A stretch of 64,000 bases of DNA from a virus (IMGVR_UViG_3300028602_000005:82137-146136); one strand, 5' to 3'. Counted from the stretch's first letter, positions 6,001 to 24,419 are shown. Made by a program: numbers and translations. Notes: generated by a model not told the origin, from the sequence alone.

Positions 6001-9000
6001 AGGCTATTCTGGATACTCATCTTATAGCGGAATAAGTGGATATTCTGGCATTTCAGGAATTTCAGGATATAGCGGAATTTCAGGTTATTCAGGAATTTCA
6101 GGTATTTCTGGCTATTCTGGATTTTCATCATATTCTGGAATAAGTGGATATTCATCTTACAGTGGAATTTCTGGATATTCAGGTATTTCAGGAATTTCAG
6201 GTTATAGTGGGATTAGTGGATATTCTGGTATTTCAGGGATTAGTGGATATAGTGGGATTTCTGGAAAATCTGGATATTCTGGACTTCAAGGATTTGTTGG
6301 ACAGAGTGGCTATTCTGGAATCAGTGGATATTCTGGCATTTCAGGATACTCAGGACGATCTGGTTATTCTGGAATTAGTGGAATCTCAGGCTATTCTGGA
6401 TTCTCATCTTACAGTGGAATCAGTGGATACTCATCATACTCAGGTATTTCTGGATATAGTGGGATAAGTGGAAAATCAGGATACTCAGGTATCTCTGGAT
6501 ATAGTGGGATAAGTGGAATTTCAGGTTATTCAGGAATTTCAGGTATTTCTGGATACTCATCTTATAGTGGAATTTCAGGATATTCAGGAAGATCAGGATA
6601 TAGTGGTATTTCTGGTTATAGTGGGATCAGTGGAATCTCAGGTTACTCAGGATATTCATCATATTCTGGAATATCAGGTTATTCTGGATACTCATCTTAC
6701 AGTGGAATTTCTGGATATTCAGGGATTTCAGGCATTTCTGGATATTCTGGTAGATCAGGATATTCAGGGATCAGTGGAATTTCTGGTTATTCTGGATTCT
6801 CATCTTACAGTGGAATTTCAGGATATTCATCATATTCAGGTATTTCAGGATATAGTGGGATTAGTGGCATTTCTGGATATTCTGGTAGATCAGGATATTC
6901 TGGCATTTCAGGGATTAGTGGTTATAGTGGAATTTCTGGAATTTCTGGATACTCATCTTATTCTGGAATTTCAGGTTATTCAGGAATTAGTGGAATTTCA
7001 GGTTATTCAGGGATCAGTGGATATTCTGGAAGATCTGGATATAGTGGTATTTCAGGAATTTCAGGTTACTCATCTTATAGTGGAATTAGTGGATATTCTG
7101 GATTTTCATCTTATAGTGGTATCTCTGGATATAGTGGAATAAGTGGAATTTCAGGTTATTCTGGAAGATCTGGTTATTCTGGAATTTCAGGCATTTCTGG
7201 TTATAGTGGATTCTCATCATATTCTGGAATCAGTGGATACTCATCTTATAGTGGAATCAGTGGATATTCTGGAATTTCAGGCATTTCTGGATATTCTGGT
7301 CGATCTGGTTACTCTGGTATTTCAGGGATTTCTGGATATAGTGGATTCTCATCTTATTCAGGAATTTCTGGATATTCATCATATTCAGGTATTTCAGGCT
7401 ATAGTGGTATTTCAGGTATTTCTGGATATTCAGGACGATCTGGATACAGTGGAATTTCTGGTATTTCTGGATATTCAGGATTCTCATCTTATTCAGGTAT
7501 TTCAGGATACTCATCTTACAGTGGAATTTCTGGATATTCTGGCATTAGTGGAATTTCTGGATATTCTGGGAGATCTGGTTATTCAGGAATTTCAGGCATT
7601 TCAGGATACAGTGGGATAAGTGGAATTTCTGGATACTCATCATATTCAGGCATTTCTGGATATAGTGGAATAAGTGGAATCAGTGGATATTCAGGTATTT
7701 CTGGATATAGTGGTCGTTCAGGATATTCAGGGATAAGTGGCATTTCAGGATATTCAGGATATTCATCTTATTCTGGAATCAGTGGATACTCATCTTATTC
7801 TGGAATCAGTGGATATTCTGGAATTTCAGGCATTTCTGGTTATAGTGGAAGATCTGGATATTCTGGCATTAGTGGAATTTCAGGTTATTCAGGATTTTCA
7901 TCATATTCAGGCATTTCTGGATATTCATCTTATAGTGGAATCTCAGGCTATAGTGGTATTTCAGGTATTTCTGGATATTCAGGACGATCAGGTTATAGTG
8001 GAATTAGTGGAATTTCAGGTTATTCTGGAATAAGTGGAATTTCTGGATACTCATCATATTCAGGCATTTCTGGATATAGTGGTATTTCAGGCATTTCTGG
8101 ATATTCGGGGATAAGCGGAATATCTGGATATAGTGGTCGTTCAGGCTACTCAGGAATTAGTGGAATTTCAGGATATAGTGGATTCTCATCATATTCTGGT
8201 ATTTCAGGATACAGTTCATATTCCGGTATTTCAGGATATAGTGGAATTTCAGGAATTTCTGGCTATAGTGGAAGATCAGGATATTCTGGAATTTCAGGCA
8301 TTTCAGGATATAGTGGATTCTCATCTTATTCAGGTATTTCAGGATATTCATCTTATAGCGGTATTTCTGGATACAGTGGTATTTCAGGCATTTCTGGCTA
8401 TAGTGGAATTTCAGGGATTAGTGGATATTCAGGGAGATCAGGTTACAGCGGAATAAGCGGAATTTCTGGATACTCATCTTATAGCGGTATTTCTGGATAT
8501 AGTGGAATATCAGGCATTTCTGGATATTCTGGACGATCAGGATATTCTGGCATTTCTGGTATTTCAGGTTATAGTGGAATAAGTGGAATATCAGGATATT
8601 CATCATATTCAGGCATTTCTGGATACTCATCATATTCAGGTATTTCAGGTTATTCAGGAATTTCAGGTATTTCTGGTTATTCTGGACGATCAGGATATTC
8701 AGGAATTAGTGGAATTTCTGGATATTCATCATATTCAGGTATTTCAGGCTATAGTGGTATTTCAGGGATTAGTGGATATTCAGGTCGATCTGGATATTCT
8801 GGTATTTCAGGAATAAGTGGATATAGTGGGATTAGTGGAATCTCTGGATACTCAGGAAGATCAGGATATAGTGGAATAAGCGGTCATTCAGGATATTCTG
8901 GAATTTCAGGATATAATACAAATGTGAGTGGAACATCTGGATATGTAGCCAAATTTATTGGAACAAATGATGTTGGTGATTCTGGAATGTATGAGGGATC

Positions 9001-9370
9001 ATCAGGATTTGGAATTGGGACAACATCACCAAGAGCAAAAATGCACATTGTTTCAGCAACTTCTGGATATCAAGCTCTATTAGTTGAAGGGACTCAAGGT
9101 GAATTATTTAGTATTTATGATGACTTATCAGGAGTTTTACATTCAGTTAATGATATTTCTGGAATGCCAATTCTTGAAGTAAATGAAGATGATAGAGTAA
9201 AAGTATATGGAACTATTGAAGGTGGATTAAAAGATCCTCCAGATACTCCAGATGCAAATAATTTTAGATTATTTTTATATGGATCTGGAACAACTCCAAA
9301 TAGAGAAGTTGGTGTAAAAATGTTAATGGAAGATGGAACAGAAATAATAATGGGATCAATCTTAATGTAA
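2..9370 (+). CDS. Giant Gly-X-Ser collagen-like tail fibre/virion protein (>3100 aa, 5' end outside window)
   Basis: Frame of ORF 1673..9370 stays open back to base 2 (SANYDVGWANPAVLASGYSG...). Gly at nearly every third residue. C-terminal FGIGTTSPRAKMHI and GELFSIYDDLSGVLHSVNDISGMPILEV segments are typical of phage tail fibres. Confidence 0.8.
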   Translation, partial: SANYDVGWANPAVLASGYSGFSGYSGVFGHSGYSGFSGYSGISGFSGYSGKSGYSGISGISGYSGFSGISGFSGISGYSGISGYSGISGYSGISGISGYSGFSGYSGYSGFSGISGYSGISGYSGISGISGYSGFSSYSGISGFSGISGYSGFSGISGYSGISGISGYSGISGISGYSGISGISGYSGISGYSGFSSYSGISGYSGFSSYSGFSGYSGISGYSGFSGISGYSGKSGYSGISGYSGLQGFVGQSGYSGISGLSGISGYSGIFGASGYSGVEGAFAASGYSGQSGYSGLSGYSGVSGYSGISGYSGISGISGYSGISGISGYSSYSGISGYSGISGYSGISGYSGISGISGYSGLKGDTGDTGLSGYSGISGYSGISGYSGISGVSGYSGISGYSGISGISGYSGISGISGYSGFSSYSGISGYSGFSSYSGYSGISGYSSYSGISGYSGISGISGYSGISGYSGISGLSGYSGISGYSGKSGYSGISGYSGISGISGYSGISGKSGYSGLQGFIGLSGYSGIFGHSGYSGISGYSGISGYSGVSGYSGMEGAFAASGYSGISGYSGFSGYSGIEGAYSASGYSGISGYSGVSGYSGISGISGYSGFSSYSGISGYSGISGISGYSGISGISGYSGLKGDIGEIGLSGYSGISGISGYSGYSGISGISGYSGISGLSGISGYSGISGISGYSGISGYSGLKGDTGEIGLSGYSGISGISGYSGLKGDTGEIGLSGYSGISGYSSYSGISGYSSYSGISGYSGISGYSGISGYSGISGISGYSSYSGISGISGYSGRSGYSGISGISGYSGRSGYSGISGISGYSGLQGFVGEEGLSGYSGISGYSGLSGYSGISGYSGEIGISGYSGISGFSGISGYSGFDGAFGASGYSGEIGISGYSGVSGISGYSGISGYSGISGISGYSSYSGISGYSSYSGISGYSSYSGISGYSGISGYSGISGYSGISGISGYSSYSGISGYSGISGYSGISGISGYSGISGYSGISGISGYSSYSGISGYSSYSGISGYSSYSGISGYSSYSGISGYSGISGISGYSGFSSYSGISGYSGISGISGYSGISGISGYSGISGYSGISGISGYSGISGISGLSGYSGISGYSGLQGFIGQSGYSGISGYSGISGISGYSGVSGYSGISGISGYSGISGISGYSGVDGAFGASGYSGISGISGYSGISGISGYSGISGYSGISGYSGISGYSGIGLYWKGQWLVEVEYFLNDVVFDNGSTFISLQNHISTSDDEPNIGVNWEDYWKFMTQSGYSGYSGISGYSGISGISGYSGISGISGYSGILGYSGVSGYSGISGISGYSGISGISGYSGISGYSGISGISGYSGISGYSGVSGYSGISGISGYSGISGISGISGYSGISGISGISGYSGISGISGYSGLVGEQGIQGISGYSGISGISGYSGISGISGYSGISGKSGYSGLQGFVGQSGYSGISGISGYSGLSGYSGISGYSGIIGISGYSGISGISGYSGVDGAFGASGYSGISGISGYSGLSGYSGISGYSGISGISGYSGISGISGYSGIGFHWKGSWEIDTAYVETDVVENDGSTFFSLQDHTSTVDDEPRIGVNWEEYWKLMAQSGYSGISGYSGISGYSGISGISGYSGISGISGYSGRSGYSGISGISGYSGISGISGYSGYSSYSGISGYSGISGISGYSGHIGEQGIQGISGYSGISGISGYSGISGYSGISGISGYSGISGYSGISGISGYSGYSSYSGISGYSGISGISGYSGISGYSGISGISGYSGVQGFVGQSGYSGISGISGYSGLSGYSGISGISGYSGVSGYSGISGISGYSGISGISGYSGVDGAFGASGYSGISGISGISGYSSYSGISGYSGISGISGYSGISGYSGISGISGYSSYSGISGYSGFSSYSGISGYSGISGISGYSGRSGYSGISGISGYSGYSSYSGISGYSGFSSYSGISGYSGISGISGYSGRSGYSGISGISGYSSYSGISGYSGYSSYSGISGYSGISGISGYSGISGYSGISGISGYSGFSSYSGISGYSSYSGISGYSGISGISGYSGISGYSGISGISGYSGISGKSGYSGLQGFVGQSGYSGISGYSGISGYSGRSGYSGISGISGYSGFSSYSGISGYSSYSGISGYSGISGKSGYSGISGYSGISGISGYSGISGISGYSSYSGISGYSGRSGYSGISGYSGISGISGYSGYSSYSGISGYSGYSSYSGISGYSGISGISGYSGRSGYSGISGISGYSGFSSYSGISGYSSYSGISGYSGISGISGYSGRSGYSGISGISGYSGISGISGYSSYSGISGYSGISGISGYSGISGYSGRSGYSGISGISGYSSYSGISGYSGFSSYSGISGYSGISGISGYSGRSGYSGISGISGYSGFSSYSGISGYSSYSGISGYSGISGISGYSGRSGYSGISGISGYSGFSSYSGISGYSSYSGISGYSGISGISGYSGRSGYSGISGISGYSGFSSYSGISGYSSYSGISGYSGISGISGYSGRSGYSGISGISGYSGISGISGYSSYSGISGYSGISGISGYSGISGYSGRSGYSGISGISGYSGYSSYSGISGYSSYSGISGYSGISGISGYSGRSGYSGISGISGYSGFSSYSGISGYSSYSGISGYSGISGISGYSGRSGYSGISGISGYSGISGISGYSSYSGISGYSGISGISGYSGISGISGYSGRSGYSGISGISGYSGFSSYSGISGYSSYSGISGYSGISGISGYSGRSGYSGISGISGYSGFSSYSGISGYSSYSGISGYSGISGISGYSGISGISGYSGRSGYSGISGISGYSSYSGISGYSGISGISGYSGRSGYSGISGISGYSGISGISGYSSYSGISGYSSYSGISGYSGISGISGYSGRSGYSGISGISGYSSYSGISGYSGISGISGYSGRSGYSGISGISGYSGISGISGYSGRSGYSGISGHSGYSGISGYNTNVSGTSGYVAKFIGTNDVGDSGMYEGSSGFGIGTTSPRAKMHIVSATSGYQALLVEGTQGELFSIYDDLSGVLHSVNDISGMPILEVNEDDRVKVYGTIEGGLKDPPDTPDANNFRLFLYGSGTTPNREVGVKMLMEDGTEIIMGSILM
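3680..3850 (+). other. CBM5/12 (ChtBD3)-like module 1 embedded in collagen-like repeat
   Basis: WKGQWLVEVEYFLNDVVFDNGSTFISLQNH..EP..W..YW matches the W-x5-Y-x3-D-V-V-x2-N-G-x2 pattern. Confidence 0.55.
4676..4845 (+). other. CBM5/12-like module 2 embedded in collagen-like repeat
   Basis: WKGSWEIDTAYVETDVVENDGSTFFSLQDH..EP..W..YW, a paralog of module 1. Confidence 0.55.
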
Positions 9371-10873: not shown

Positions 10874-13843
10874 ATGGCAATTAAAATATATGGTGGAAAC
10901 ACAGTTGTTTTAGATTCTGGTGATTCTAAACCAACTAATTTACCCGATGATGCAAGAGCTTTTGAAAGAGACACTAAAAAAATTTATATTAAAGCCTCTG
11001 GATCATGGGAAAAAGTTCAAGGATATAGCGGTTATTCTGGTATTAGTGGTTATAGTGGCATTTCTGGATATTCAGGACGATCTGGCTATTCTGGAATTTC
11101 TGGATATTCAGGCATTAGTGGTATCTCAGGCTATTCAGGACGGTCAGGATACTCAGGAATCTCAGGCATTAGTGGTTATAGTGGGACTAGTGGAAAAAGT
11201 GGTTACAGTGGCATTTCAGGCATTTCAGGCTACTCTTCTTATAGCGGTATTAGTGGATATTCAGGAATTAGTGGAATATCTGGTTATTCAGGGAGATCTG
11301 GATACTCAGGGATTAGTGGAATTTCTGGATATTCATCTTATTCTGGTATTTCTGGATATTCATCTTACAGTGGAATTTCTGGATATTCAGGAATTTCAGG
11401 TATTTCAGGATATTCAGGCCGATCTGGTTATTCTGGAAGATCAGGATATTCTGGTATTTCAGGAATTTCTGGATACTCATCTTATTCTGGTATTTCTGGA
11501 TACTCATCTTATAGTGGAATAAGTGGTTATTCTGGTTTTAGTGGAAAATCTGGATATTCAGGCATTTCAGGGATCAGTGGATATTCTGGTATTTCTGGAA
11601 TTTCAGGATACAGTTCATATTCCGGTATTAGTGGATATAGTTCATATTCTGGCATCTCAGGCTACTCAGGACGGTCAGGATACTCAGGAATCTCAGGGAT
11701 AAGTGGTTATAGTGGGACTAGTGGAAAAAGTGGTTACAGTGGCATTTCAGGCTACTCTTCTTATAGCGGTATTAGTGGATATTCATCATATTCTGGAATT
11801 TCTGGATATTCTGGACAAAAAGGAGATATTGGTGAAACAGGATTTCCAGGATCAACTGGTGCATCTGGATATTCTGGAATTTCAGGTTATTCAGGAAAAT
11901 CTGGATATTCTGGAATTAGTGGTATTTCAGGCTACAGTGGAACAATTGGAATTTCAGGATATTCTGGTCGATCTGGTTATTCTGGAATTTCAGGTATTTC
12001 TGGATATTCATCATATTCTGGTATTTCAGGATACAGTTCATATTCTGGAATTTCAGGATATTCTGGACAAAAAGGAGATATTGGTGAAACAGGAGGTCCA
12101 GGAGTTGGAATATCTGGATATTCAGGAATTTCAGGTATTTCTGGTTATTCTGGTAGATCTGGATATAGTGGAATTAGTGGAATTTCAGGTTATAGTGGAA
12201 TAAGTGGAAAATCTGGATATTCTGGCATTTCAGGGATTTCTGGATACTCATCATATTCTGGTATTTCTGGATATTCATCTTATAGTGGAATCTCAGGATA
12301 CTCAGGGATTTCAGGAATAAGTGGATATTCAGGGAGATCTGGTTATTCTGGAATTTCAGGAATTAGTGGATATAGTGGATTTTCATCATATTCAGGTATT
12401 TCAGGATATTCATCATATTCTGGAATCTCTGGATACTCATCTTATAGTGGAATTTCAGGATATTCTGGCATTTCAGGTATTTCTGGTTATTCAGGACGAT
12501 CAGGATATAGTGGAATTTCTGGAATCAGTGGATACTCATCATATTCAGGCATCTCAGGATATTCATCATATTCTGGAATTTCAGGCATCTCAGGATACTC
12601 AGGACGATCAGGATATTCTGGCATTAGTGGAATTTCAGGATATAGTGGAATTTCTGGAATCAGTGGATACTCATCTTATTCTGGAATCTCTGGATACTCA
12701 TCTTATAGCGGTATTTCAGGATATTCTGGAATTTCAGGAAAATCAGGATATTCTGGCATTGCCGGTTCAACAGGAACTTCTGGATATTCTGGAATTTCAG
12801 GAAAATCAGGATATTCTGGCATTGCTGGTTCAACTGGAACTTCTGGTTATTCTGGAATTTCAGGAAAATCAGGATATTCTGGCATTGCTGGTTCAACTGG
12901 AACTTCTGGTTATTCTGGAATTTCAGGAAAATCAGGATATTCTGGCATTGCAGGTTCAACAGGATCAACTGGATCAATAGGAACTTCTGGATATTCTGGA
13001 ATTTCAGGAAAATCAGGATATTCAGGCATTGCTGGTTCAACAGGCTCAACTGGAACTTCTGGATATTCAGGCATTGCCGGTTCAACAGGATCAACAGGAA
13101 CTTCTGGGTATTCAGGAATTTCAGGCATTTCTGGATATTCTGGAATTGTTGGGACTTCTGGATATTCTGGTAGATCTGGATACTCAGGACGATCAGGGTA
13201 TTCTGGTCAAGCATTGGCTGTAAATGTAAGTTCTGATAATAGGATGGCCAGATATCATTCAACAAATCAAATTCAGGGAACTGGAATTTCAGTTGATGAT
13301 TCAGATAATGTCACTGGAATGAATTCTCTGGCTTTAAAAACTGGAACTTTACAAAGTGGATATACTCCTTCTGGAACAGCTGCCCTTGAATATAATGGAT
13401 ATTTTTATCCCACAAGAGTTTATAATGCTTATTATAATGACTTTGCAGACTTTCAAATTTTAGATGATATTTTATTCTATGGAAAATGTTATTATCAATC
13501 TAAATTCGGATTAAAGATTTGTAATGAAAAATGTCAAAAAGGAATTGTCGGAATTGCATCTGATACTTATGGTCCTTCTACTGGATTTGAAAAAGGAAAA
13601 ATTCAAATTCCTATTTCTGTGGCAGGATGGGTTTTAGCATTTGTCGATAAAGAATATGATTCTGGAACTCCTTTAACAAATAATGAAAATGGTGATTTAA
13701 CTGAAATGTCTTTAATTGAAAAATTATTTTATCCAGAAAGATTAGTGGCTGTTTATATGAGAAAAGAAGAAAAAATGTATTTTGGATTAAAATCTGGATC
13801 TCCGATAAAAGTAAATGGAAGACATTGGGTTAAAGTTAAATAG
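10874..13843 (+). CDS. Second Gly-X-Ser collagen-like fibre protein with putative C-terminal chaperone (Peptidase_G2/IMC-like) domain
   Basis: About 720 aa of GXS repeat, then YPTRVYNAYYNDFADF..GIVGIASDTYG..IPISVAGWV..W(V)KVK, resembling tail-spike intramolecular chaperones. Confidence 0.65.
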   Translation: MAIKIYGGNTVVLDSGDSKPTNLPDDARAFERDTKKIYIKASGSWEKVQGYSGYSGISGYSGISGYSGRSGYSGISGYSGISGISGYSGRSGYSGISGISGYSGTSGKSGYSGISGISGYSSYSGISGYSGISGISGYSGRSGYSGISGISGYSSYSGISGYSSYSGISGYSGISGISGYSGRSGYSGRSGYSGISGISGYSSYSGISGYSSYSGISGYSGFSGKSGYSGISGISGYSGISGISGYSSYSGISGYSSYSGISGYSGRSGYSGISGISGYSGTSGKSGYSGISGYSSYSGISGYSSYSGISGYSGQKGDIGETGFPGSTGASGYSGISGYSGKSGYSGISGISGYSGTIGISGYSGRSGYSGISGISGYSSYSGISGYSSYSGISGYSGQKGDIGETGGPGVGISGYSGISGISGYSGRSGYSGISGISGYSGISGKSGYSGISGISGYSSYSGISGYSSYSGISGYSGISGISGYSGRSGYSGISGISGYSGFSSYSGISGYSSYSGISGYSSYSGISGYSGISGISGYSGRSGYSGISGISGYSSYSGISGYSSYSGISGISGYSGRSGYSGISGISGYSGISGISGYSSYSGISGYSSYSGISGYSGISGKSGYSGIAGSTGTSGYSGISGKSGYSGIAGSTGTSGYSGISGKSGYSGIAGSTGTSGYSGISGKSGYSGIAGSTGSTGSIGTSGYSGISGKSGYSGIAGSTGSTGTSGYSGIAGSTGSTGTSGYSGISGISGYSGIVGTSGYSGRSGYSGRSGYSGQALAVNVSSDNRMARYHSTNQIQGTGISVDDSDNVTGMNSLALKTGTLQSGYTPSGTAALEYNGYFYPTRVYNAYYNDFADFQILDDILFYGKCYYQSKFGLKICNEKCQKGIVGIASDTYGPSTGFEKGKIQIPISVAGWVLAFVDKEYDSGTPLTNNENGDLTEMSLIEKLFYPERLVAVYMRKEEKMYFGLKSGSPIKVNGRHWVKVK
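12719..12960 (+). repeat. Near-perfect 63-bp tandem repeat (GYSGISGKSGYSGIAGSTGTS), about 4 copies
   Basis: ggaatttcaggaaaatcaggatattctggcattgcNggttcaac recurs every 63 bp. Confidence 0.9.
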
Positions 13844-13898: not shown

Positions 13899-15839
13899 AT
13901 GGCAGATCAAACTTGGACTGATGAAACTGTAGTAGTTTCGCTTAATGTTGGAAGTGGTATCTCTAACGGAATAATTAGTAGTGATAATTTCGGTGTTATT
14001 TATTATGTATCAGCATCTTTTGAAAATAGATATCAAATATTTGCTTTAAATAGTAATCTTTTATCATGGAATAGTGCTGGAAGTAGTTTTGATTATTACT
14101 TTGATTTTGCTTTATCTATTGCTAATATAGTTAATGGAGTTCCTATTTATTTTTATCCTTGGGCAATATACTCAGGATCAAATGTTGGAAGTATTAATAC
14201 TATTTCAAATACACATCATTATCCAAATTATAGATTAGAATGTATTTCAACCTCTACATCAACATTTGATTTAAAACTTCAATATTGGAACGGATCTTCT
14301 TTAATTTTAGATAGAACTATTTTAAGCGCATTAAGTGAAAATGTTTATTATGGGGTAAATATTACATTTGATACTTCTGTTGGTAATGGAAGATTTATTA
14401 TAGATATTTTTAATAAAACAACAAATGTTCAAATATGTCATTATACATATGATCTTCTAACCACAATAAATTTTACAAAAACATATGAATTTTCAACTTT
14501 ATATCTTACTTCAAGTACATCATCTGCTTCAGCAACAACAAGATATTTTGAAAAAAGAACTGCGACTAAAATAGAAGACACATATTATGATGAACTCCAA
14601 GATGCTGTAAATGCTTGGCAAACTGCTTATGGATTAACAAATTCAACTTGGACACAAGATGAGCCAGATACAGATGATTCAATTTTGGAAGTCACAACTC
14701 TTGAATTGGAAACGGCAATTGAATATTTAGAATTTTTGGCTGGAAAAACATCAAGTTTATATAAAATTTCAGGAACAAAAACAAATTCAAATTTAGATTT
14801 AACGACTTTTACAGAAGTTGATCCAGATGGAATTTTAACAATCGCAAGTAATTCTTTAACAGCGACAGGATCTTCTTCAGCTAATGAAAATTATGTTTAT
14901 AAAGATTTTGGGGTTGGTTATTTTAATAATTTTTGTATAGATTTTAAAATAAATGCTTCATTTTTTAATTTAGGCGCATATGCTTTAGGTTTCACAAATG
15001 ACAATAGTTCAGATATAAGATCGGTAAGTGGAACATATATAGGGTTATCTTTCTGGTCTGGACTTGGATCTGCCGGTATGCTTCAATATACAACAGCACA
15101 TAGAATAAATCTGAATTTAAATACAGATTATTATGTGAGATTTATTAAAATAGATTCTTTTAGTACATATGGGCAAATTTTTTGTTTTGTTTATAGTGAT
15201 TCAAGATATAATACTTTAGTTAATTATTTTACGGCTTATTTAACTGAACCATATGGAATTTCTTATAGATATTTATATATCTATTCTGATGTAAATGGAA
15301 TTGGAACAAATACTCAATTTGTTTCATCAGATTATAAAATCAGAAATTTAAATTCAATTGATTTTCATGATTTAGAATTATTAAGATATAAAGTAAATTT
15401 ATTACAATCGACATATTGTTATTTATGTGACACTTGTGACACTGAGACTTGTGATTGTAATCCCGCTTGTAATGTTGACGGATGTGATTGTGACGGAATT
15501 TGCGATACAGACACATGTACTTGTCATGGGACTTGTAATAGTGATGGATGTACTTGTCATGGGTTATGTAATGGAGATACTTGTACAAATTGTAACGCAT
15601 CATGTTATTCTTATTCAAAAGTTTGTGTTCTTTGTTATTTTTCATGTTATTCTGACGCATGTACTTGTAATGGATCTTGTAATGGTGATTCATGTACTTG
15701 TCATGGTGAATGTAATTCAGACTCATGTACTTGTAATTCTGGGTGTGATAATGATGTCTGTAGTGTTTGTAATGGATCTTGTAATGTTGAAGGATGTACA
15801 AAATGTGACGGAACTGCTTATCGATATCCTTGGACCTAA
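13899..15839 (+). CDS. Putative virion protein with C-terminal Cys-rich repeat tail (candidate radical SAM substrate A)
   Basis: Beta-rich, lectin-like body. ELQDAVNAWQTAY and LELLRYKVNLL helices. About 35 Cys in 12 units, ending YRYPWT. Confidence 0.75.
   Translation: MADQTWTDETVVVSLNVGSGISNGIISSDNFGVIYYVSASFENRYQIFALNSNLLSWNSAGSSFDYYFDFALSIANIVNGVPIYFYPWAIYSGSNVGSINTISNTHHYPNYRLECISTSTSTFDLKLQYWNGSSLILDRTILSALSENVYYGVNITFDTSVGNGRFIIDIFNKTTNVQICHYTYDLLTTINFTKTYEFSTLYLTSSTSSASATTRYFEKRTATKIEDTYYDELQDAVNAWQTAYGLTNSTWTQDEPDTDDSILEVTTLELETAIEYLEFLAGKTSSLYKISGTKTNSNLDLTTFTEVDPDGILTIASNSLTATGSSSANENYVYKDFGVGYFNNFCIDFKINASFFNLGAYALGFTNDNSSDIRSVSGTYIGLSFWSGLGSAGMLQYTTAHRINLNLNTDYYVRFIKIDSFSTYGQIFCFVYSDSRYNTLVNYFTAYLTEPYGISYRYLYIYSDVNGIGTNTQFVSSDYKIRNLNSIDFHDLELLRYKVNLLQSTYCYLCDTCDTETCDCNPACNVDGCDCDGICDTDTCTCHGTCNSDGCTCHGLCNGDTCTNCNASCYSYSKVCVLCYFSCYSDACTCNGSCNGDSCTCHGECNSDSCTCNSGCDNDVCSVCNGSCNVEGCTKCDGTAYRYPWT
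15417..15815 (+). repeat. CxCxxxCxxDx / CxxCxxxCxxDx coding repeat
   Basis: For example CTCHGTCNSDG-CTCHGLCNGDT-CTNCNASCYSY. Confidence 0.95.
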
Positions 15840-15873: not shown

Positions 15874-18213
15874 ATGGCTTATCAAACTTTTACAGATGAT
15901 TTAAAAACTGTTTATGATATTTCACAATATGGAACTATTTTTATTGAAAATATATTTAATTGTCGAATAGATGATTCTTATTATAGATGTGATCCTAATG
16001 GATATGGTGATCAGGGATATATTGATGAAAATGAATCAGTATTTTTTAGAATATCTGAAAAAACAGAAAAAATATCATGGTTAAATCCTTTCATTTCTTT
16101 AAATGGTATTGGATCTGATGAAAAGAAAAGTGGATATATAAAACAATATAATTATAAAGATACATTTTCTTGTTTATTTAAATTTGATATTTTTAGTACA
16201 TCTGATTCAACGGGTGAAATTTATTTTGGATTTTCAAATAGAGAAGGATTTTTAAAAGATTTTAATGATAATTATTTAAGTTTAATTATGGGTAAAATAA
16301 AATGTGAAGATAATAATTTTAAATTATCTATAGTTAATCAATACGGAAATACTTTTAATGAAACAGAATCATATATAACATTAAATTATGATACCATTTA
16401 TTATATCCAATTTTCAAAAAAATATAATACTTTTAGTTCTCATGACTTTAAAATAAGTGTTTTTAATTCATCAGAAGAATTTATAGATTCAATAAGTATT
16501 AATTTTAATCACAATATTTCTTTTGAAGGATTTTATTATAAAAATTCATATTTTTATTATTTTATGTATCCTCATGATACAAATCTTTCAGATAAAAAAG
16601 TAAATGGATGGTTTTTAGAACATACATTTTTTCCTGTTTCAGAATATAATTTTAAAAAATCAACTTATTACGGTGAATTACAAAATGCGGTAAATGCTTG
16701 GGAAACAGCATATAATATAAATAATACAAATTGGACATATTCAAATAATGATCCAAGCTCAAATGCAGTTTTTACATCTGTTTTAGAATTAAGAGGGGCA
16801 TTAGATAATTTACATGATAATTTGGCTTCACCATATTGGCCACATGAAACATGGGCTACAGATATTTCTTATGATTTGAGTTCAGCGGGTGAGAAAGATA
16901 ATTTAAATAGAATTTCATATAATTCAAACTCAATAATTTCATCTTTTATAGATGTTTATGATGATGGATATATAGCTGGAAATATTCCAGAATTAACTGA
17001 TTTCTTTTATAAATTTTCATTTAAATACACATCAGAAATAGGGAATCCTATATATATGATAACACCATTAATTACTCTTTCAAAAAATTATGTTGGTGGT
17101 GTTTTTTCTTTATGTTATAATAATATTGCTTTTGTTTCAGTTATTTTATATAATTCAACTTCAGATTCAAGACCGAAAATAGGAATTGTCAGAAGTGATG
17201 GAAATTATTACTACGGTTCAGTTTATTTATCATATAATACAACATACTATGTAAAATTCTTTAGAAATATAAATATAGGACCATTTGGGAGATATTTCAT
17301 TTATATTTATAGTGATAGTAATTATAATAATTTAATTGACGGGGTAACTATTTACGGAAGTGAAGTTTCAAATTTTGAAGATCTTAGATTTGATGTTTTT
17401 TCAGCGGTAAATGGAATGAATGGTCATTGTTTTATAAGACCTGTTAATATTTATAATGTACAACATAGTGTTTCTAATCCAAATAATTTTCAATCTTATA
17501 CTTTAGAAAACTTGAGAACAGTTATGAATAATTTACAGATAAGTCATTGTTATTTATGTGATTCTGGTGATTATCTCTCATCATGTTCTTGTGATGGATC
17601 TTGTAATTCAGACACATGTTCTTGTGATGGAGTATGTAATGGAGACACATGTTCTTGTAATGGGACTTGTAATGGGGATATTTGTTCAAATTGTTACTCA
17701 TCATGTTATTCTTATTTAAAAAGTTGTAGTTTATGTGATCACTCCTGTTATAATGACACTTGTATTTGTAATGGAATTTGTAATTCAGACTCATGTTCTT
17801 GTAATGGGACTTGTAATGGAGATACTTGTTCTTGTGATGTAGAGGGAGGATGCTCAACAGACTCATGTGATTGTGACGGATCTTGTAATGGAGACTCATG
17901 TTCTTGTAATATTGGGTGTAATTCTGACGGATGTGATTGTAACGCCTCTTGTAATGGGGATGCGTGTTCAAATTGTTATTCATCATGTTACTCTTATGAT
18001 GGAAAAAATTGTTATCTTTGTAATATGTCTTGTTATTCTGATGTTTGTACTTGTAATGGAATTTGTAATTCAGACTCATGTTCTTGTGATGGGTCATGTA
18101 ATTCTGATACTTGTTCTTGTGATGGGTCATGTAATTCTGATACTTGTTCTTGTTATTCAGAAGAAAGTTGTATTCAATGTAATGCGACTGTTTATAGATA
18201 TCCTTGGTCATAA
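15874..18213 (+). CDS. Paralogous putative virion protein with longer Cys-rich repeat tail (candidate substrate B)
   Basis: ELQNAVNAWETAY and LENLRTVMNNL match 13899. About 54 Cys in about 18 units, ending YRYPWS. Confidence 0.75.
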   Translation: MAYQTFTDDLKTVYDISQYGTIFIENIFNCRIDDSYYRCDPNGYGDQGYIDENESVFFRISEKTEKISWLNPFISLNGIGSDEKKSGYIKQYNYKDTFSCLFKFDIFSTSDSTGEIYFGFSNREGFLKDFNDNYLSLIMGKIKCEDNNFKLSIVNQYGNTFNETESYITLNYDTIYYIQFSKKYNTFSSHDFKISVFNSSEEFIDSISINFNHNISFEGFYYKNSYFYYFMYPHDTNLSDKKVNGWFLEHTFFPVSEYNFKKSTYYGELQNAVNAWETAYNINNTNWTYSNNDPSSNAVFTSVLELRGALDNLHDNLASPYWPHETWATDISYDLSSAGEKDNLNRISYNSNSIISSFIDVYDDGYIAGNIPELTDFFYKFSFKYTSEIGNPIYMITPLITLSKNYVGGVFSLCYNNIAFVSVILYNSTSDSRPKIGIVRSDGNYYYGSVYLSYNTTYYVKFFRNINIGPFGRYFIYIYSDSNYNNLIDGVTIYGSEVSNFEDLRFDVFSAVNGMNGHCFIRPVNIYNVQHSVSNPNNFQSYTLENLRTVMNNLQISHCYLCDSGDYLSSCSCDGSCNSDTCSCDGVCNGDTCSCNGTCNGDICSNCYSSCYSYLKSCSLCDHSCYNDTCICNGICNSDSCSCNGTCNGDTCSCDVEGGCSTDSCDCDGSCNGDSCSCNIGCNSDGCDCNASCNGDACSNCYSSCYSYDGKNCYLCNMSCYSDVCTCNGICNSDSCSCDGSCNSDTCSCDGSCNSDTCSCYSEESCIQCNATVYRYPWS
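17548..18182 (+). repeat. CxCxxxCxxDx / CxxCxxxCxxDx coding repeat
   Basis: For example CSCDGSCNSDT-CSCDGVCNGDT-CSCNGTCNGDI. Confidence 0.95.
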
Positions 18214-18249: not shown

Positions 18250-19272
18250 ATGATAATTGTAAATGATTTTGAAATTAAAGATTCAATTTTAGGAAATGAA
18301 AATAATCTTACTTTTGGAATTTTTAGTGGTCCTGTTATAAGTAATAATAAGTTATCTTTGTCTCCTGAATTTGATTATATGTTAAATTATATAAAGCCTT
18401 TGGTTGATAAAGTTATTTATGTTGTTGTTATAGATTCTTGTGTAAATCTAGAATCTTCAATTGAGAAAAATCAAATTATAGATTTTAGTGCTTTAGAAGA
18501 TTTAACAAATGATAATTTTAAAAATAATATAGATTATTGTTTAGTTATTAATAATTTAAAAACAGATAGTGATTATATTTTATCAAAATTAACTGAAATA
18601 AATTCAGTAAAAACAACATCTAAATATGATGGAAGTTATGGATGGTTTGGATTAAATTATAGAATTTTTAAAGCATTAAATAATTTGAGCATCAATAATA
18701 ATATTTGTATTGGATTTAAATCAAAAAATGATTTATTTAGAGTTATTGGTGAATATAAAGCATATGAAGAATTTAGAAATAGTGGAAATTATTTATTTAG
18801 TAATACAAGTAATCCTGGAAAAAGATTAGTGACTCCTTTATTGAGAGATGTTGATGGATTATTACCTTCATCATTTGTAGAAAATGAAGAAATTCATAAT
18901 ATAAGATTAAATCTTAAAAAATATATGGAATCTGTTTCTTTTGAAGATAAAACAGTAAGAGATTTTATTGAAGAAGTTAATAAAAATTTAGATAGACATA
19001 ATATTAATTATAAGTATTTTGTTACATTTGATGATTTTGAATTATTTGTAAGAGGAACAGTTGATTTATCAAAAGTAAATAAAGGTTGTATGAGAGTTAT
19101 TTATGGAACTGATAATTTATCAGATCCTTATTGGGAAGAGATTAAATTTATAGGATTAGATGAGAATAAATGGTTTAATATTGTAACATTATCAGATATA
19201 GATTTAACAAAATTTTCTGTTAATACTCTTCCATATTTATATGAAAAACAAATTATTGAGAAAGGAATATAA
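18250..19272 (+). CDS. Degenerate pantoate-beta-alanine ligase (PanC)-like fold protein 1
   Basis: PLLRDVDGLLPSS resembles PanC PxxRxxDGLAxSS, and ICIGFKSKNDLFRVI resembles ACFGEKDxQQLxxI. The N-terminal HxGH motif is absent. Confidence 0.55.
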   Translation: MIIVNDFEIKDSILGNENNLTFGIFSGPVISNNKLSLSPEFDYMLNYIKPLVDKVIYVVVIDSCVNLESSIEKNQIIDFSALEDLTNDNFKNNIDYCLVINNLKTDSDYILSKLTEINSVKTTSKYDGSYGWFGLNYRIFKALNNLSINNNICIGFKSKNDLFRVIGEYKAYEEFRNSGNYLFSNTSNPGKRLVTPLLRDVDGLLPSSFVENEEIHNIRLNLKKYMESVSFEDKTVRDFIEEVNKNLDRHNINYKYFVTFDDFELFVRGTVDLSKVNKGCMRVIYGTDNLSDPYWEEIKFIGLDENKWFNIVTLSDIDLTKFSVNTLPYLYEKQIIEKGI

Positions 19273-20782
19273 AAAATTGAAAGAAATTGAATTTCCAAAA
19301 CCAAGAGCTTGTACTATTGATTTAACTGAAGGTTGTAATCTGGCGTGTGACTACTGTTTTACCCATTCTCTTCATAATAGAAAAGTAATCTCTGAAGAAA
19401 TGGGTAAAACAATCATAAGATTATGGCTTGAAAAAACAGATTATCAAAATAGAAATGATGTAGAGATAGGATTTTGGGGTGGAGAACCCTTATTAGAATT
19501 TGATTTATTAAAAAAATTAGCTAATTACACAAAAGAGATTACTGAAAATAAAGTTGATAAATTCTCTATTACGACAAATGGCACTTTATATACAGAAGAA
19601 ATTGTCGAATGGAGTCTTGAAAATAAAATGGCATGTTTAATATCATTAGATGGAAATGAAGAATCTCATGATATGCATAGAAAATTCAAAAATGGAAAAG
19701 GTTCATGGAAAGTTATTGATTCTAATATTAGAAAAGCAATGAAAATTAATCCTAATCAAAGAGTCAGAGTTTCAATTGCTGCCGATACTCTTCATTTATT
19801 ATATGATTCATTTATTTATATTATAGAAGATTTGGGAATTAAATCATTTGCTTTTTCTCCTGTTTTCGAAGGTGATTGGAATCAAGAAAACTGGAAACTT
19901 TTAGAATATCAATTTAATAGATTTGCTGATTATACAATAAAAGAAGCTAAAAAAGGAAATCATATTATATTGAAACATTTTAAAGATGAAATGATTAATG
20001 GAGGAAATTTAAAAGAAAAACAAAATCCATGTGGTGCTGGAAATGGATATTCAGCATGGAGTGTTGATGGAATTCAATTTCCATGTCATAGATTTAATAA
20101 ACATGGATTATCAACAGAAGAAAGATTAAAATCACCATTTGTCATAGGGAGAATTATAGATAATAAATATTTTATGTATAATGAGGCAAGAGAACCTTTT
20201 GTTTCATTTAAAGATAAGACACCAATAAAATGTGAAGTCTGTAATATATTTAGAAGATCATCATGTGTTGGAAATTGTTATGCGGTAAATTATGATTTAA
20301 CTGGTGATATTAATGTATCTCCAGATGTTTGTTGTACATTTAATAAAATTCAACATAAAATTGGTATGAGATTAGAAAGAGAATATAGAGATAATAATAT
20401 TAAGATGCCATTTGAGACTGTTAGAGATAAGAAAAATACTCCTTCTGGTTGTGTTTGTTATAATATGTGTTATGCAGAAGGGACAGAAAATGAAATAATT
20501 CATTTTGATAAAAGAAATAATGGAACATGTAATTGTTATCAAGTTTCTTATTCAGATAATATAGGATTTGAAAATTCAAGGAAAAAAAATGAAATTCAAA
20601 AAGATGATGATATGTTAAAAACATTTTTGAATTTGTCAAAGAAAATCTTAGCAAATAATGATAAAATTGATAACAAAACTAAAGAGATGAAAGATCTTGA
20701 AAATGATGTTTTATCTAAAACAATTGGTTTGTTAGAAAGAAAAAATGAATGTAAAGGAGAATGTTGTAAATGCAAGAAGTAG
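19241..20782 (+). CDS. Radical SAM/SPASM maturase 1 with extra C-terminal Cys motif
   Basis: CNLACDYC, FWGGEPLL, TTNGTL, ISLDG..HD..R. SPASM CGAG..FPCHRF..CEVC....SCVGNC. An alternative TTG start at 19277 follows AAAGGA. Confidence 0.95.
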   Translation: MKNKLLRKEYKKLKEIEFPKPRACTIDLTEGCNLACDYCFTHSLHNRKVISEEMGKTIIRLWLEKTDYQNRNDVEIGFWGGEPLLEFDLLKKLANYTKEITENKVDKFSITTNGTLYTEEIVEWSLENKMACLISLDGNEESHDMHRKFKNGKGSWKVIDSNIRKAMKINPNQRVRVSIAADTLHLLYDSFIYIIEDLGIKSFAFSPVFEGDWNQENWKLLEYQFNRFADYTIKEAKKGNHIILKHFKDEMINGGNLKEKQNPCGAGNGYSAWSVDGIQFPCHRFNKHGLSTEERLKSPFVIGRIIDNKYFMYNEAREPFVSFKDKTPIKCEVCNIFRRSSCVGNCYAVNYDLTGDINVSPDVCCTFNKIQHKIGMRLEREYRDNNIKMPFETVRDKKNTPSGCVCYNMCYAEGTENEIIHFDKRNNGTCNCYQVSYSDNIGFENSRKKNEIQKDDDMLKTFLNLSKKILANNDKIDNKTKEMKDLENDVLSKTIGLLERKNECKGECCKCKK

Positions 20783-21894
20783 ATTTTAAAACAATGACTT
20801 TAGGAGAAAAAATAGATTTTGAAATGGGAGAGGAAGATGGAAGAAAAACAGGATGTAAGGGATTTGAAACATATCCTTTATTCTGGATTAATATGTTTTT
20901 AAATTATACTTGTACTAGAAGTTGTACTAATTGTTTTGCTGGTGGTGGAAAAAATAATTTCGTAATGCCAGATGATGTTTATAATAGATTATTAAATTGG
21001 TTAGTAGAAGTTTATAATCTTCATGGATTTAAGTATTCTTGTTTTGTTTATTTGGGTGGTGAACCTCTTTTAGAATTTGATAAAATTGTTGGGATAATGG
21101 AACATATGGAAAAAAATAATGTTCAAGGGGTTTATCACCATATTTCATCTAATTTTGATTTGATTGATAAAATAGATTTGAATAGATTAGTTTATCCTTC
21201 TTTAATGTCTTTTAATATAACAGATTTATCATTTGATGAAGTTTCGAAAAGATCAAAATATTTTGGTAAAATGAAAAATGTAGTTCAACAAGAAGTTAAA
21301 TTAACAGCATATGAATCTAATCTCCCAAGATTAAAAGAATTAGCAGAATTTGGAATTTCAAATGGATTTAGAGTAAGAATTTATAGAGATCAAACACAAC
21401 ATTCAAATGAAGAATATAAAACTAAATTTATAAAAGCTCTGCATGAATATTTAGATGTTTTTGAAAAATATATTGAAAAGGGATATCATACAAATGTAAA
21501 ATATGTTATTCTTGATGCTTTAATTCCAAATGTTCCAAATAGAACTTGTGGGAGAGCAAATCTTAATGTTTATCCAGATGGATCTGTCGGTCCTTGTATA
21601 AGAGCTTTAGATGATATTAAAGGAACATTATGGACACCGAATCCTTTAAAATTAGCTTTAGATGAAAAATATATTTATTCTTCAAATTCAAAATATTGTC
21701 ATGATGATTGTAGAGAATGTAAAGTTAAACATACATGTAAAGGTGGATGTCCTTATGATAAATCTTTGGCTTATGGTGAAATTAAAGAAGGGATGAAAAG
21801 TCCTTGGTGTAGAGTTTATAAAGAAATTGTCCCAAGAATTGATAAAATTGCAAATAAAAATAGAAAAGGGAATTCAATTACAATAGGGATTTAA
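20770..21894 (+). CDS. Radical SAM/SPASM enzyme 2 (divergent)
   Basis: CTRSCTNC, YLGGEPLL. SPASM TCG..VYPDGSVGPC..CRECKVKHTCKGGCP..WC. Confidence 0.92.
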   Translation: MQEVDFKTMTLGEKIDFEMGEEDGRKTGCKGFETYPLFWINMFLNYTCTRSCTNCFAGGGKNNFVMPDDVYNRLLNWLVEVYNLHGFKYSCFVYLGGEPLLEFDKIVGIMEHMEKNNVQGVYHHISSNFDLIDKIDLNRLVYPSLMSFNITDLSFDEVSKRSKYFGKMKNVVQQEVKLTAYESNLPRLKELAEFGISNGFRVRIYRDQTQHSNEEYKTKFIKALHEYLDVFEKYIEKGYHTNVKYVILDALIPNVPNRTCGRANLNVYPDGSVGPCIRALDDIKGTLWTPNPLKLALDEKYIYSSNSKYCHDDCRECKVKHTCKGGCPYDKSLAYGEIKEGMKSPWCRVYKEIVPRIDKIANKNRKGNSITIGI

Positions 21895-21906
21895 GGAGAT
21901 TAAAAG

Positions 21907-22929
21907 ATGAAAATTTTAACAGTTGATAATATACATGATAGTGATTTATTTTCAGATGATGTTAAAACGATTGGAGTTTTAATTTTATTAATGGTTGATT
22001 ATGAATATCTTTTTTTAAGTAAAAATTTTTTAAATAAGATAAATATGATTAAACCAATGGTTGATAAAATGGTTTGTTTATTTTCTCCGACATGTAATGT
22101 TTATTCAAATAATATAACAAATAAAGATGTTAAAAAAAATATAATTCAAGATCCAGATTATCTTAAATCTAAAAGTGAAGAGAACTTTAAAATTCTGGAA
22201 GAAAATATAGATTATATTTCATTTAATAATTTTTCTTATTCAAGAACCGAAGAAATAGAAAATATAATTAAAACTTTAGATATAGATACAATAAAATTAA
22301 AACAAAGTTTATTTATAGAAAGTTATCCAGTATCAAGTATTGAAAATGTTTTTAGATTTCTTCCTGAAGAAAAAACAATTGTTTTTAGAGATAAAAATTT
22401 TATGTTAAATCATTGGATAAATGAATTTCAATTAAAAAGACAAATAAGACATGAATATAATCTTAATTTATTTAAATCAGTTGGGAGAATTATTCTTCCA
22501 ACTTTTAGAGATGATAGTGGATTAATTTGTTCAGAAGGTGAAAATGATCATTCTATTCTGTCAGAAGAAATAACTAATGCTTTAATTAATTTAAAGTCAT
22601 ATCTTAGAGATTATAATGTAATTAATAAAACTCTTAAAGAAATTACTTTAGATTTGAATAAAAACATTCCATTAAAAATAGAAGATTCAAAATATTTTGT
22701 TTTTTGTGCAAATCTTGAAAATTCATTATTGAATACTTATGAAAATAAAATAATAGATTTTGAAAAAGGATATGTTGTTGTAAGAATATATAAAGAAGGT
22801 TCTCCTATTGTTAATGAAGTAAAATTTATAGGATTAGATGAAAGTAAATTTTTTGATTTAGAAACTGTAAATGATATTAATGAAGAAATCACTAAAGATA
22901 ATTTACTTAATTTTGCAAAATGGGATTAG
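21907..22929 (+). CDS. Degenerate PanC-like fold protein 2 (paralog of 18250)
   Basis: IVFRDKNF and LPTFRDDSGLICS resemble PanC motifs. Shares KP(L/M)VDK and E(I/V)KFIGLDE with 18250. No HxGH. Confidence 0.55.
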   Translation: MKILTVDNIHDSDLFSDDVKTIGVLILLMVDYEYLFLSKNFLNKINMIKPMVDKMVCLFSPTCNVYSNNITNKDVKKNIIQDPDYLKSKSEENFKILEENIDYISFNNFSYSRTEEIENIIKTLDIDTIKLKQSLFIESYPVSSIENVFRFLPEEKTIVFRDKNFMLNHWINEFQLKRQIRHEYNLNLFKSVGRIILPTFRDDSGLICSEGENDHSILSEEITNALINLKSYLRDYNVINKTLKEITLDLNKNIPLKIEDSKYFVFCANLENSLLNTYENKIIDFEKGYVVVRIYKEGSPIVNEVKFIGLDESKFFDLETVNDINEEITKDNLLNFAKWD

Positions 22930-24419
22930 AAAGGAAAATAAATATAATGAATGATGATTTTGAAATTCCACATCAAAGTTCATGTACGATAGATTTAACA
23001 GAAGAATGTAATATGGCATGTGATTATTGTTTTACACATTCTCAACATAACAAAAAAGTTTTATCTGAAGAAATGGGTAAAAAAATAATTGATCTTTGGT
23101 TTTTAAATGTTATGTTAGATTCTTCTTCTAATAAAACTCCAAATATTTCATTTTGGGGTGGAGAACCATTATTAGAATTTGAATTAATGAAAAAACTTAT
23201 TAAATATGGAGATGAAATATCTAATAATACACTTACATATGGTGGAACTACAAATGGAACTTTATACACAGCAGAAGTCGCTGAATGGTGTTTAAAAAAT
23301 AAATCTCCTATGTTAGTTTCATCTGATGGTGTTGAAGAAGCTCATGATAAACACAGAAAATTCAAAAATGGAAGAGGGACTTGGAAAGTAATAGATAAAA
23401 ATTTAAGAGAAATTGTTAAATTCTTTCCAAAACAAAAAGTTAGATTATCTATATCAACAGATAACTGTCATTTGTTTTATGATTCTTTTTTATATTTTAT
23501 TGAAGGTTTGGGAATGAAGGAATTTTCTTTTTCTCCTGTTTTTGAAGATGATTGGACAAAAGAAAAATTTGATATTTTAGAAGAACAATTTAATAAATGT
23601 ATTGACTATATTTTAAAGGAAGCTAAAAGAAATAATTTTATAGATTTAAAACATTTTACAGATATAATGTTAAGAAATGGATCAGAACAGATTATAAGAA
23701 ATCCATGTGGTGCTGGAACTGGTTATTCTGCTTGGTCTATTGAGGGATTACAATTTGCATGTCAAAGATTTAATAAACATGGTTTATCATTAGAAGAAAA
23801 GTTAAAATCTCCTTTCCTTATAGGAAGGATAAAAGATGATAAATATGAAATATATAGAGAACCAAGACAGCAATTTATTAATTTTAAAGATAAATTAGAG
23901 GATAGGTGTGGTCATTGTTCGCTATTAAAAAATTCAAATTGTTATGGAAATTGTTTTTCTGTTAATTATGATTTAATGGGAGATATTAATAAAACTCCAA
24001 AAGTATGTTGTGATTTTAATAAACTTCAAAATGATATGGGATTAAAATTAAGAAAATTATTTGATGATAATAAAATTATTCACCCTAAAATGAAACAAAA
24101 ACAAATTAAAAATGGATGTGGTCTTTGTTATAATATGTGTTATTCTGAGGGAACAGATGAAGAGATTACAATAATAGATAGAAGAAAAAATCATTATTGT
24201 AATTGTGATGTTATTGAATATTCAGATAATCTTAAAAGATTAAATTGTAGATCTATTAAAGAAATTGATGATGATAGTAAAAAATTATTTAAATCATTAG
24301 AGACATGCAAAAAGATTTTAGAAACTAGAGATATGAATAAAAGAGAAGACTTAATTAAAATGGAAGATAAAGTCTTCAATGATACAATAGAATCAATAAA
24401 AAAATTCACAAAAAAATAA
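22920..24419 (+). CDS. Radical SAM/SPASM maturase 3 (close paralog of 19241)
   Basis: CNMACDYC, FWGGEPLL, TTNGTL. CGAG..FACQRF..CGHC....NCYGNC, plus C-terminal CGLCYNMCYSE. Confidence 0.95.
   Translation: MGLERKINIMNDDFEIPHQSSCTIDLTEECNMACDYCFTHSQHNKKVLSEEMGKKIIDLWFLNVMLDSSSNKTPNISFWGGEPLLEFELMKKLIKYGDEISNNTLTYGGTTNGTLYTAEVAEWCLKNKSPMLVSSDGVEEAHDKHRKFKNGRGTWKVIDKNLREIVKFFPKQKVRLSISTDNCHLFYDSFLYFIEGLGMKEFSFSPVFEDDWTKEKFDILEEQFNKCIDYILKEAKRNNFIDLKHFTDIMLRNGSEQIIRNPCGAGTGYSAWSIEGLQFACQRFNKHGLSLEEKLKSPFLIGRIKDDKYEIYREPRQQFINFKDKLEDRCGHCSLLKNSNCYGNCFSVNYDLMGDINKTPKVCCDFNKLQNDMGLKLRKLFDDNKIIHPKMKQKQIKNGCGLCYNMCYSEGTDEEITIIDRRKNHYCNCDVIEYSDNLKRLNCRSIKEIDDDSKKLFKSLETCKKILETRDMNKREDLIKMEDKVFNDTIESIKKFTKK

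Follow-up and report, generated by a model that had tools for sequence, protein, structure and literature searches.

In the 64,000-nucleotide (nt) stretch IMGVR_UViG_3300028602_000005:82137-146136 (referred to as the window), which comes from a large uncultured phage, two radical S-adenosylmethionine (SAM)-SPASM enzymes, rSAM1 (19241–20782, + strand, 513 amino acids (aa)) and its sister paralogue rSAM3 (22920–24419, + strand, 499 aa), were found to carry, behind the SPASM domain, a cysteine-rich tail module resembling the Cys-repeat units of their putative fibre-protein substrates. Judged from sequence, the module is probably an ancestral, family-wide component of CteB/PapB-like radical SAM-SPASM enzymes that form a phage-specific clade without an RRE. 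In our favoured reading, to which a probability of roughly 40% was assigned, the tail is a substrate mimic working in cis: it would bind auxiliary cluster 1 and the cleft of its own enzyme and would probably be crosslinked itself. Cleft entry, self-modification and any gating role are inferred.

In rSAM1, the SPASM region (20030–20335, + strand) with seven invariant Cys (C264, C282, C331, C334, C342, C346 and C365) and a post-SPASM helix are followed by a length-variable, poorly conserved linker (20393–20446, + strand, aa 385–402) with gap-rich alignment columns, for which AlphaFold2 gave predicted local distance difference test (pLDDT) values below 56 from residue 391 onwards. The tail module (20447–20560, + strand, aa 403–440) consists of unit 1 (GCVCYNMCYAEGT), a conserved linker with the family consensus xxEIIHIDxxxDxx and unit 2 (TCNCYQVSYSD), and contains the five invariant Cys C404, C406, C410, C430 and C432. 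Translation placed the unit-1 motif GCVCYNMCYAEG at aa 403–414 (nt 20447–20482) and TCNCYQ at aa 429–434 (nt 20525–20542). The module of rSAM3 (24114–24230, + strand, aa 399–437) comprises unit 1 (GCGLCYNMCYSEGT) and unit 2 (YCNCDVIEYSD), with the unit-1 motif GCGLCYNMCYSEG at aa 399–411 (nt 24114–24152) and YCNCDV at aa 426–431 (nt 24195–24212); one inserted residue in unit 1 turns CxC into CxxC. A first-pass annotation, made by a model from the sequence alone, had reported substrate-like Cys motifs after the SPASM domains of both enzymes, and these were recovered at most 3 nt from its coordinates, in each case past the last SPASM Cys (C365 in rSAM1, C364 in rSAM3). It had also stated correctly that rSAM2 (20770–21894, + strand, 374 aa), a divergent radical SAM-SPASM enzyme, is devoid of the extension: little sequence follows the SPASM domain of this protein, and a comparable motif is absent.

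The homologue search yielded 2,347 proteins, nearly all metagenomic, and the best 120 were inspected for the tail, which was present in 97; these sequences, from large uncultured phages, formed the alignment set. They are only 32–53% identical to rSAM1, and 96 of the 97 keep CxC-Y-N-M-C-Y-x-E-G-T followed by CxC-Y-N-T-x-Y-x-G. Since the motif, moreover, lies at homologous positions in rSAM1 and rSAM3, it is not a chance match. When open frames in all six reading frames of the window were scanned for C-x(1,2)-C-xxx-C-xx-[DE], the pattern occurred only in the putative substrates A and B, in an insert of a tail-collar fibre paralogue and in the two tails; shuffles that preserved the composition of rSAM1 or rSAM3 produced it in about 1% of trials. 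All five Cys of the tail are as invariant in the alignment as the seven of the SPASM region, and N408, Y411, E413, E418 and Y437 are conserved to at least 90%. The logos (n = 96, figures in percent) read C-[IVT]-C-Y81-N97-M69-C-Y98-x-E96-G84-T85 for unit 1 and C-x-C-Y83-N62-T53-x-Y97-x-G81 for unit 2, which is a half-unit with the third Cys absent. The distance from unit 1 to unit 2 is identical in 89 of 96 sequences.

The tail module occurs on both sides of the deepest split of the midpoint-rooted family tree and is therefore probably ancestral. One clade of six sequences has unit 1 alone (3 Cys), joined straight to the C-terminal helical hairpin, and three sequences in another clade have unit 2 alone (2 Cys); the third Cys was lost in two sequences. 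The units appear to function independently, because clades with a single unit still hold the consensus of that unit. More distant relatives on viral contigs have only a unit-2-like CxCYNANYTGP, or nothing. Several tail-bearing homologues (P0125, P0129, P0130 and P0134, and the enzyme of locus L018) are interrupted by inteins at differing sites, namely within the radical SAM motif region, after the SPASM GX4 element or before CX3C, and the tail is intact in each.

Searched against 1.84 billion representative proteins, the tail profile gave 27 matches, all of which, one spurious repeat (P0141) aside, belong to this enzyme family as full-length, intein-bearing or short fragmentary sequences. Stand-alone tail genes were not evident among the short matches (67–129 aa), most of which begin inside or just before the motif, as fragments or gene calls at an internal Met would. 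In the phage's own genome the profile found just the two copies. The module had no significant match in Pfam, NCBIfam, PDB sequences or the ESM Atlas, and 50,697 GenBank phage records contained no relative with the tail and hence offered no cultured model for the fibre chemistry; one match there (H1) proved to be a bacterial SCIFF maturase adjoining SecDF and was set aside. The first-pass annotation had considered that the tail Cys might ligate a third Fe–S cluster shared with unrelated SPASM enzymes; as the profile is restricted to this family, they do not constitute such a common site.

Cys-repeat proteins accompany the family: within the stretches fetched, one was encoded in 12 of 17 further viral-contig loci and in loci L001–L003, and L002 and L003 also contain T4-type portal, prohead protease and Gp23 genes. 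CxC-type substrate units pooled from 11 loci (n = 116) gave C-[ST]-C-N62/D27-x-T48-C-Y64-G53-[Y33/D28/Q16/E9] (percent), so that the skeleton CxCxxxCY is common to tail unit 1 and the pooled units, as are the non-Cys positions Y8 and N5. Units near-identical to the tail consensus CxC[YN]NMCYxE were found in the substrates of other phages (CICNNTCYGE, CTCYNVCYGY, CSCNNTCYGD) and, in the window, as CEECYNVCYPD. The substrate-like character of the tails was thus borne out more strongly than could be seen from the window, and the resemblance noted earlier between the rSAM3 tail and both CYLCNMSCYSD of substrate B and CEECYNVCYPD of the collar insert is correct. Tails and substrates differ consistently at three positions: Y/F at position 4 in 91% of tails vs N/D in 89% of substrate units, M/L vs T/S at position 6, and E at position 10 in 96% vs 9%. 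Differences of this kind are more readily expected of a specialised mimic than of a copy undergoing drift, and conservation of the tail far exceeds that of the substrates; from sequence, common descent of tail and substrate units is plausible.

The substrate arrays have a conserved entry, R-x-N-M-N-x-L-Q-x-x-x-C-Y-L-C-D (15381–15440 and 17515–17560 in the window), and a conserved C-terminal exit, A-Y-R/E-Y-P-W-T (15816–15836 and 18190–18210), both shared with loci L001, L005 and L006; they are candidate recognition sequences in place of a leader peptide. A second class of Cys-repeat proteins (loci L008, L011, L016 and L017) has internal, regular CSCN[AN]TCYGY arrays of up to 26 units and ends in ...HRL.... 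As position 10 is mostly Tyr or Gln in this class, a Cys–Asp/Glu crosslink cannot be the universal chemistry of the units. In the T4-like relative at L002, a glycosyltransferase–methyltransferase fusion gene (7010–8221) separates the gene of the partner protein from that of the Cys-repeat substrate, and the module may thus be combined with glycosylation.

Both tail-bearing enzymes belong to the radical SAM superfamily, with CX3CX2C motifs at C32/C36/C39 (rSAM1) and C30/C34/C37 (rSAM3) and PF04055 scores of 54.2 and 40.9 bits (cut-off 29.5); rSAM2 reached just 15.6 bits, yet has C48/C52/C55. The SPASM arrangement, defined as CX9-15GX4C ... CX2CX5-8CX3C ... C after the barrel, is present as C264-x12-G-x4-C282, C331-x2-C334-x7-C342-x3-C346 and C365, invariant in the 97 sequences; the Pfam SPASM model had no match to rSAM1 or rSAM3 at E < 0.1. 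The best family was NF047865 (PapB; 215.7 bits for rSAM1 and 196.8 for rSAM3, model positions 3–329), at scores below the 340-bit equivalog cut-off and hence short of membership, as were those for TIGR03974 (ScfB/CteB SCIFF; 166.9 and 136.6 bits, cut-off 425). The TIGR03974 match begins at model position 96–101, the RRE part being absent. The four best families, namely PapB, SCIFF, CXXX-repeat maturase and QhpD, are all thioether-forming and were all matched below their curated cut-offs; they suggest thioether (ranthionine) chemistry for the phage enzymes.

The AlphaFold2 model of full-length rSAM1 had a mean pLDDT of 86.5 with a confident core, and its best Foldseek match was CteB (PDB 5WGG/5WHY; E 5e-22, template modelling (TM) score 0.72 by target), followed by anSME. 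CteB was also the best sequence match (rSAM1 22–371 to CteB 97–441, E 3e-31), with coincidence of the seven SPASM Cys; because the core alignment begins at CteB 97, the RRE is absent from rSAM1. With the cluster ligands of CteB taken from PMC10177961, auxiliary cluster 1 of rSAM1 is assigned to C264/C282/C346, three ligands that leave one iron open, and cluster 2 to C331/C334/C342/C365. Neither rSAM1 nor rSAM3 has a Cys shortly before the first one of the SPASM region. Such a Cys was considered as a fourth cluster 1 ligand that might substitute for the tail, as it occurs in 11 of 22 sequences without a full tail vs 13 of 96 with one; it is also present in several full-tail sequences and is clustered by clade, so the relation is not clean and the idea was dropped.

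The favoured mechanism starts from a tail that sits on a flexible linker and whose unit 1 copies the skeleton of the fibre repeat that the enzymes presumably crosslink. A tail thiolate would bind the open iron of auxiliary cluster 1 in the manner of the substrate Cys in CteB, PapB and Tte1186, and tethering would stand in for leader–RRE binding. The tail itself would probably be crosslinked via C410-xx-E413 or C406-x6-E413, and the resulting plug or product-like cap would then be displaced by the fibre array. A Se–Fe contact of the substrate selenocysteine with auxiliary cluster 1 has been described for PapB and Tte1186 (PMC10177961). PapB crosslinks essentially any leader-tethered Cys-Xn-Asp/Glu with n = 0–6, Glu being accepted (PMC9413430); a PapB-like enzyme should therefore also act on C-xx-E or C-x6-E when either is covalently tethered to it. 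The regions preceding unit 1 and succeeding unit 2 are length-variable and poorly conserved, and flanking linkers of this kind, the layout of a tethered peptide, support the mimic.

Several observations weigh against such a mimic. The tail is not required for catalysis, since some related enzymes with similar substrates are tail-less, and it does not track the substrate grammar from phage to phage, the substrates of the window being mostly CxC[HND]GxCN[SG]D. Profile–profile alignment of the tail with the substrate end covered 12 columns only (E 0.0019, probability 14%), and the thioether assignment draws on family matches below cut-off. AlphaFold2 left rSAM1 residues 396–443 at pLDDT 30–54 and did not place the tail in the cleft; a complex prediction of the core (1–392) with the tail, three 4Fe–4S clusters and SAM gave an ipSAE of 0.02, which speaks neither for nor against binding. 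The fixed spacing of the units (89/96), their conserved linker and the five invariant Cys resemble, moreover, a small folded domain stabilised by metal or crosslinks. A separate metal-binding domain, with Zn or an extra Fe–S cluster on the five Cys and a structural or electron-transfer role, whose likeness to the substrate would amount to closely spaced Cys only, is a serious rival, though a less likely one. It would account for the features just named, including E418 in the linker, and a B-box zinc-finger chain of TRIM29 was matched by the profile, if very weakly (E 0.019). This reading also agrees with the failure of AlphaFold2 to model the substrate array (substrate A, 5-sequence alignment, mean pLDDT 42, model uninformative), as expected of folds that depend on a cofactor or crosslink. 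However, the tail profile found nothing significant among PDB sequences, the module had no significant match to Pfam or NCBIfam models or to Atlas clusters, and AlphaFold2 gave no fold for the tail even with the 97-sequence alignment. The spacings CxC and CxCxxxC are, to our knowledge, untypical of zinc knuckles or ferredoxins, and Y8 and N5, which are not Cys, are shared with the substrate units as well. The clades that retain the consensus of unit 1 or unit 2 alone, with 3 or 2 Cys, fit short peptide-like ligands better than one site of four to five Cys.

The tail could instead act in trans as a docking or register unit that pairs or stacks with the array repeats, or recruits the 340-aa partner protein, in place of the RRE–leader contact during processing of 10–26 units. 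That the enzymes are without an RRE, though their putative substrates are large proteins, would be explained in this way, as would the common skeleton of tail and units; the family co-occurs with Cys-repeat proteins, and a partner of 288–340 aa was present in all three loci checked (the window, L001 and L002). The low-confidence array model contains short strands every ~5–6 residues, which would permit a stacked repeat, and substrate engagement between domains, beyond RRE–leader binding, has been proposed for CrpC/CrpA (PMC13692751). Nothing, however, shows self-association of the units, tail-less relatives have similar substrates, and the substrate entry RxNMNxLQxxxCYLCD and exit AYRYPWT, to which the tail is not closely similar, are better candidates for recognition; docking was hence considered unlikely. 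An extension of the cis mimic, in which each enzyme would be its own first substrate, is likewise doubtful: the tail would be stapled autocatalytically, either in cis or between two subunits that dimerise through the hairpin, and SAM cleavage would be coupled to the arrival of the fibre array by the stapled unit, acting as a built-in primer or gate. The hairpin of rSAM1 (20585–20758, + strand, aa 449–506) consists of helices 449–471 and 481–506 (pLDDT 82–94, AlphaFold2) and is kept across the family, also in variants with unit 1 only. Should the enzyme dimerise through this hairpin, the active site of one subunit would be within reach of the other's tail. A search of the ESM Atlas with residues 392–513 returned only generic helical-hairpin look-alikes, all at TM < 0.5, some of them dimerisation hairpins of the HisKA type.

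The first-pass annotation had further proposed that the two paralogues may have specialised on the two unit types, in which case the spacings of their tails, CxC in rSAM1 and CxxC in rSAM3, would mirror or determine which enzyme handles 11-mer and which 12-mer units. This phage has 21 CxC and 9 CxxC units and, uniquely, two tail-bearing paralogues with matching spacings. It is, however, a single case: none of the other 97 aligned tails shows the CxxC of rSAM3, which arose after a duplication specific to this lineage (rSAM1 and rSAM3, 53% identical, are sisters with a support of 99, rSAM3 lying on the longer branch). Phages with one CxC-tailed enzyme also possess CxxC units (9 CxxC to 1 CxC in L006, 3 to 2 in L001 and 4 to 9 in L008), and PapB, the nearest characterised enzyme, accepts n = 0–6. 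The proposal is thus unsupported and specialisation very improbable; for the agreement of tail spacing with unit type in this phage, a single coincidence is the best reading.

Among characterised systems, CteB, the SCIFF thioether maturase, shares with the phage enzymes CX3CX2C, the seven SPASM Cys and a three-Cys auxiliary cluster 1, the open site of which bound a substrate Cys in the crystal. It differs in having an N-terminal RRE of ~95 aa, in ending directly after the SPASM domain and in acting on a 45-aa peptide, whereas the radical SAM motif stands at the very start of the phage enzymes, which have an additional ~140 aa (linker, Cys tail and hairpin) and fibre proteins as putative substrates. 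PapB/PapA, which belong to the ranthipeptide freyrasin, follow a similar logic of repeated Cys-Xn-Asp/Glu with many spacings and Glu tolerated; unlike PapB, which is without a substrate-like tail, the phage enzymes have no RRE, their units hold three Cys, and position 10 is Tyr or Gln in many phages. In anSME, auxiliary cluster 1 is fully ligated by a fourth protein Cys, a model for completion of the cluster by a tail Cys, although this ligand precedes the first SPASM Cys by six residues and is not part of a C-terminal tail; anSME (PDB 4K36-4K39) was the second-best structural match to the rSAM1 model. A precedent for autocatalytic modification of a tail is the borosin-type OphMA, which reportedly carries its substrate on its own C-terminus; it is said to be an N-methyltransferase with no substrate other than its tail, which leaves as the product, whereas the phage enzymes have separate large substrates. 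Pseudosubstrates of protein kinases such as PKC are tethered copies of a substrate consensus that differ at key positions, with fold and chemistry unrelated to the phage enzymes. Crosslinking at the protein level is the feature shared with CrpC/CrpA of Methanococcus voltae, for which ranthionine formation by a SPASM radical SAM enzyme on a Cys-rich protein, not a short peptide, was demonstrated only recently (PMC13692751). CrpC differs in that it has an RRE, is archaeal and not from a phage, and no embedded substrate-like motif was reported for it. In full-text literature searches, neither SPASM enzymes with a substrate-like or pseudosubstrate tail nor phage-encoded enzymes of the ranthipeptide type came up; one cyanophage paper only lists a radical SAM maturase gene.

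The contig is 255–280 kb in size and the region is AT-rich (~24% GC). On the + strand, the genes follow the order of two collagen-like fibre genes, substrate A, substrate B, unk1, rSAM1, rSAM2, unk2 and rSAM3. The two very large collagen-like proteins (2–9370 and 10874–13843), with G-[YIF]-S triplets, are encoded immediately upstream of the Cys-repeat genes, with two small lectin/LamG-like open reading frames (ORFs) between them. Substrate A (gene 13899–15839) has its Cys-repeat array at 15417–15836 (+ strand), ending in YRYPWT, and substrate B (gene 15874–18213) at 17548–18210 (+ strand), ending in YRYPWS. A third set of Cys units (55154–55456, + strand), including CEECYNVCYPD, forms the insert in the tail-collar fibre paralogue (gene 54491–55906), which matches PHROG tail-collar families. 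The partner protein unk1 (18250–19272, + strand, 340 aa), upstream of rSAM1 and overlapping it, had no family match; its paralogue unk2 (21907–22929, + strand, 340 aa, 28% identity) overlaps rSAM3. Public gene calls start rSAM1 at 19277 instead of 19241 (12 codons later, 501 aa) and rSAM3 at 22947 instead of 22920 (9 codons later, 490 aa), and it is with the longer ORFs that each overlaps its upstream partner gene. At its extreme C-terminus, rSAM1 bears a further Cys cluster, ECKGECCK (20750–20773, + strand; C504, C508, C509 and C511), within an end that reads ECKGECCKCKK; similar C-x-G-x-C-x-C-like ends are sporadic in the family (P0041, P0046, P0081 and P0084).

Radical SAM maturases of ribosomally synthesised and post-translationally modified peptides usually locate their substrate through an RRE that binds a leader peptide. 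The phage clade has no RRE, its putative substrates are large virion proteins, and a substrate unit is copied, almost without variation, at the C-terminus of the enzymes themselves. Entry of the tail into the cleft, or its self-stapling, would be a new way to control or prime a SPASM enzyme and would make the tail an internal reporter of the chemistry on phage fibres; the family alignment supplies a clear set of residues for mutation. A self-stapled tail that acts as primer or gate would be a radical SAM counterpart of borosin self-modification and, for SPASM enzymes, the first control of the pseudosubstrate type to be described.

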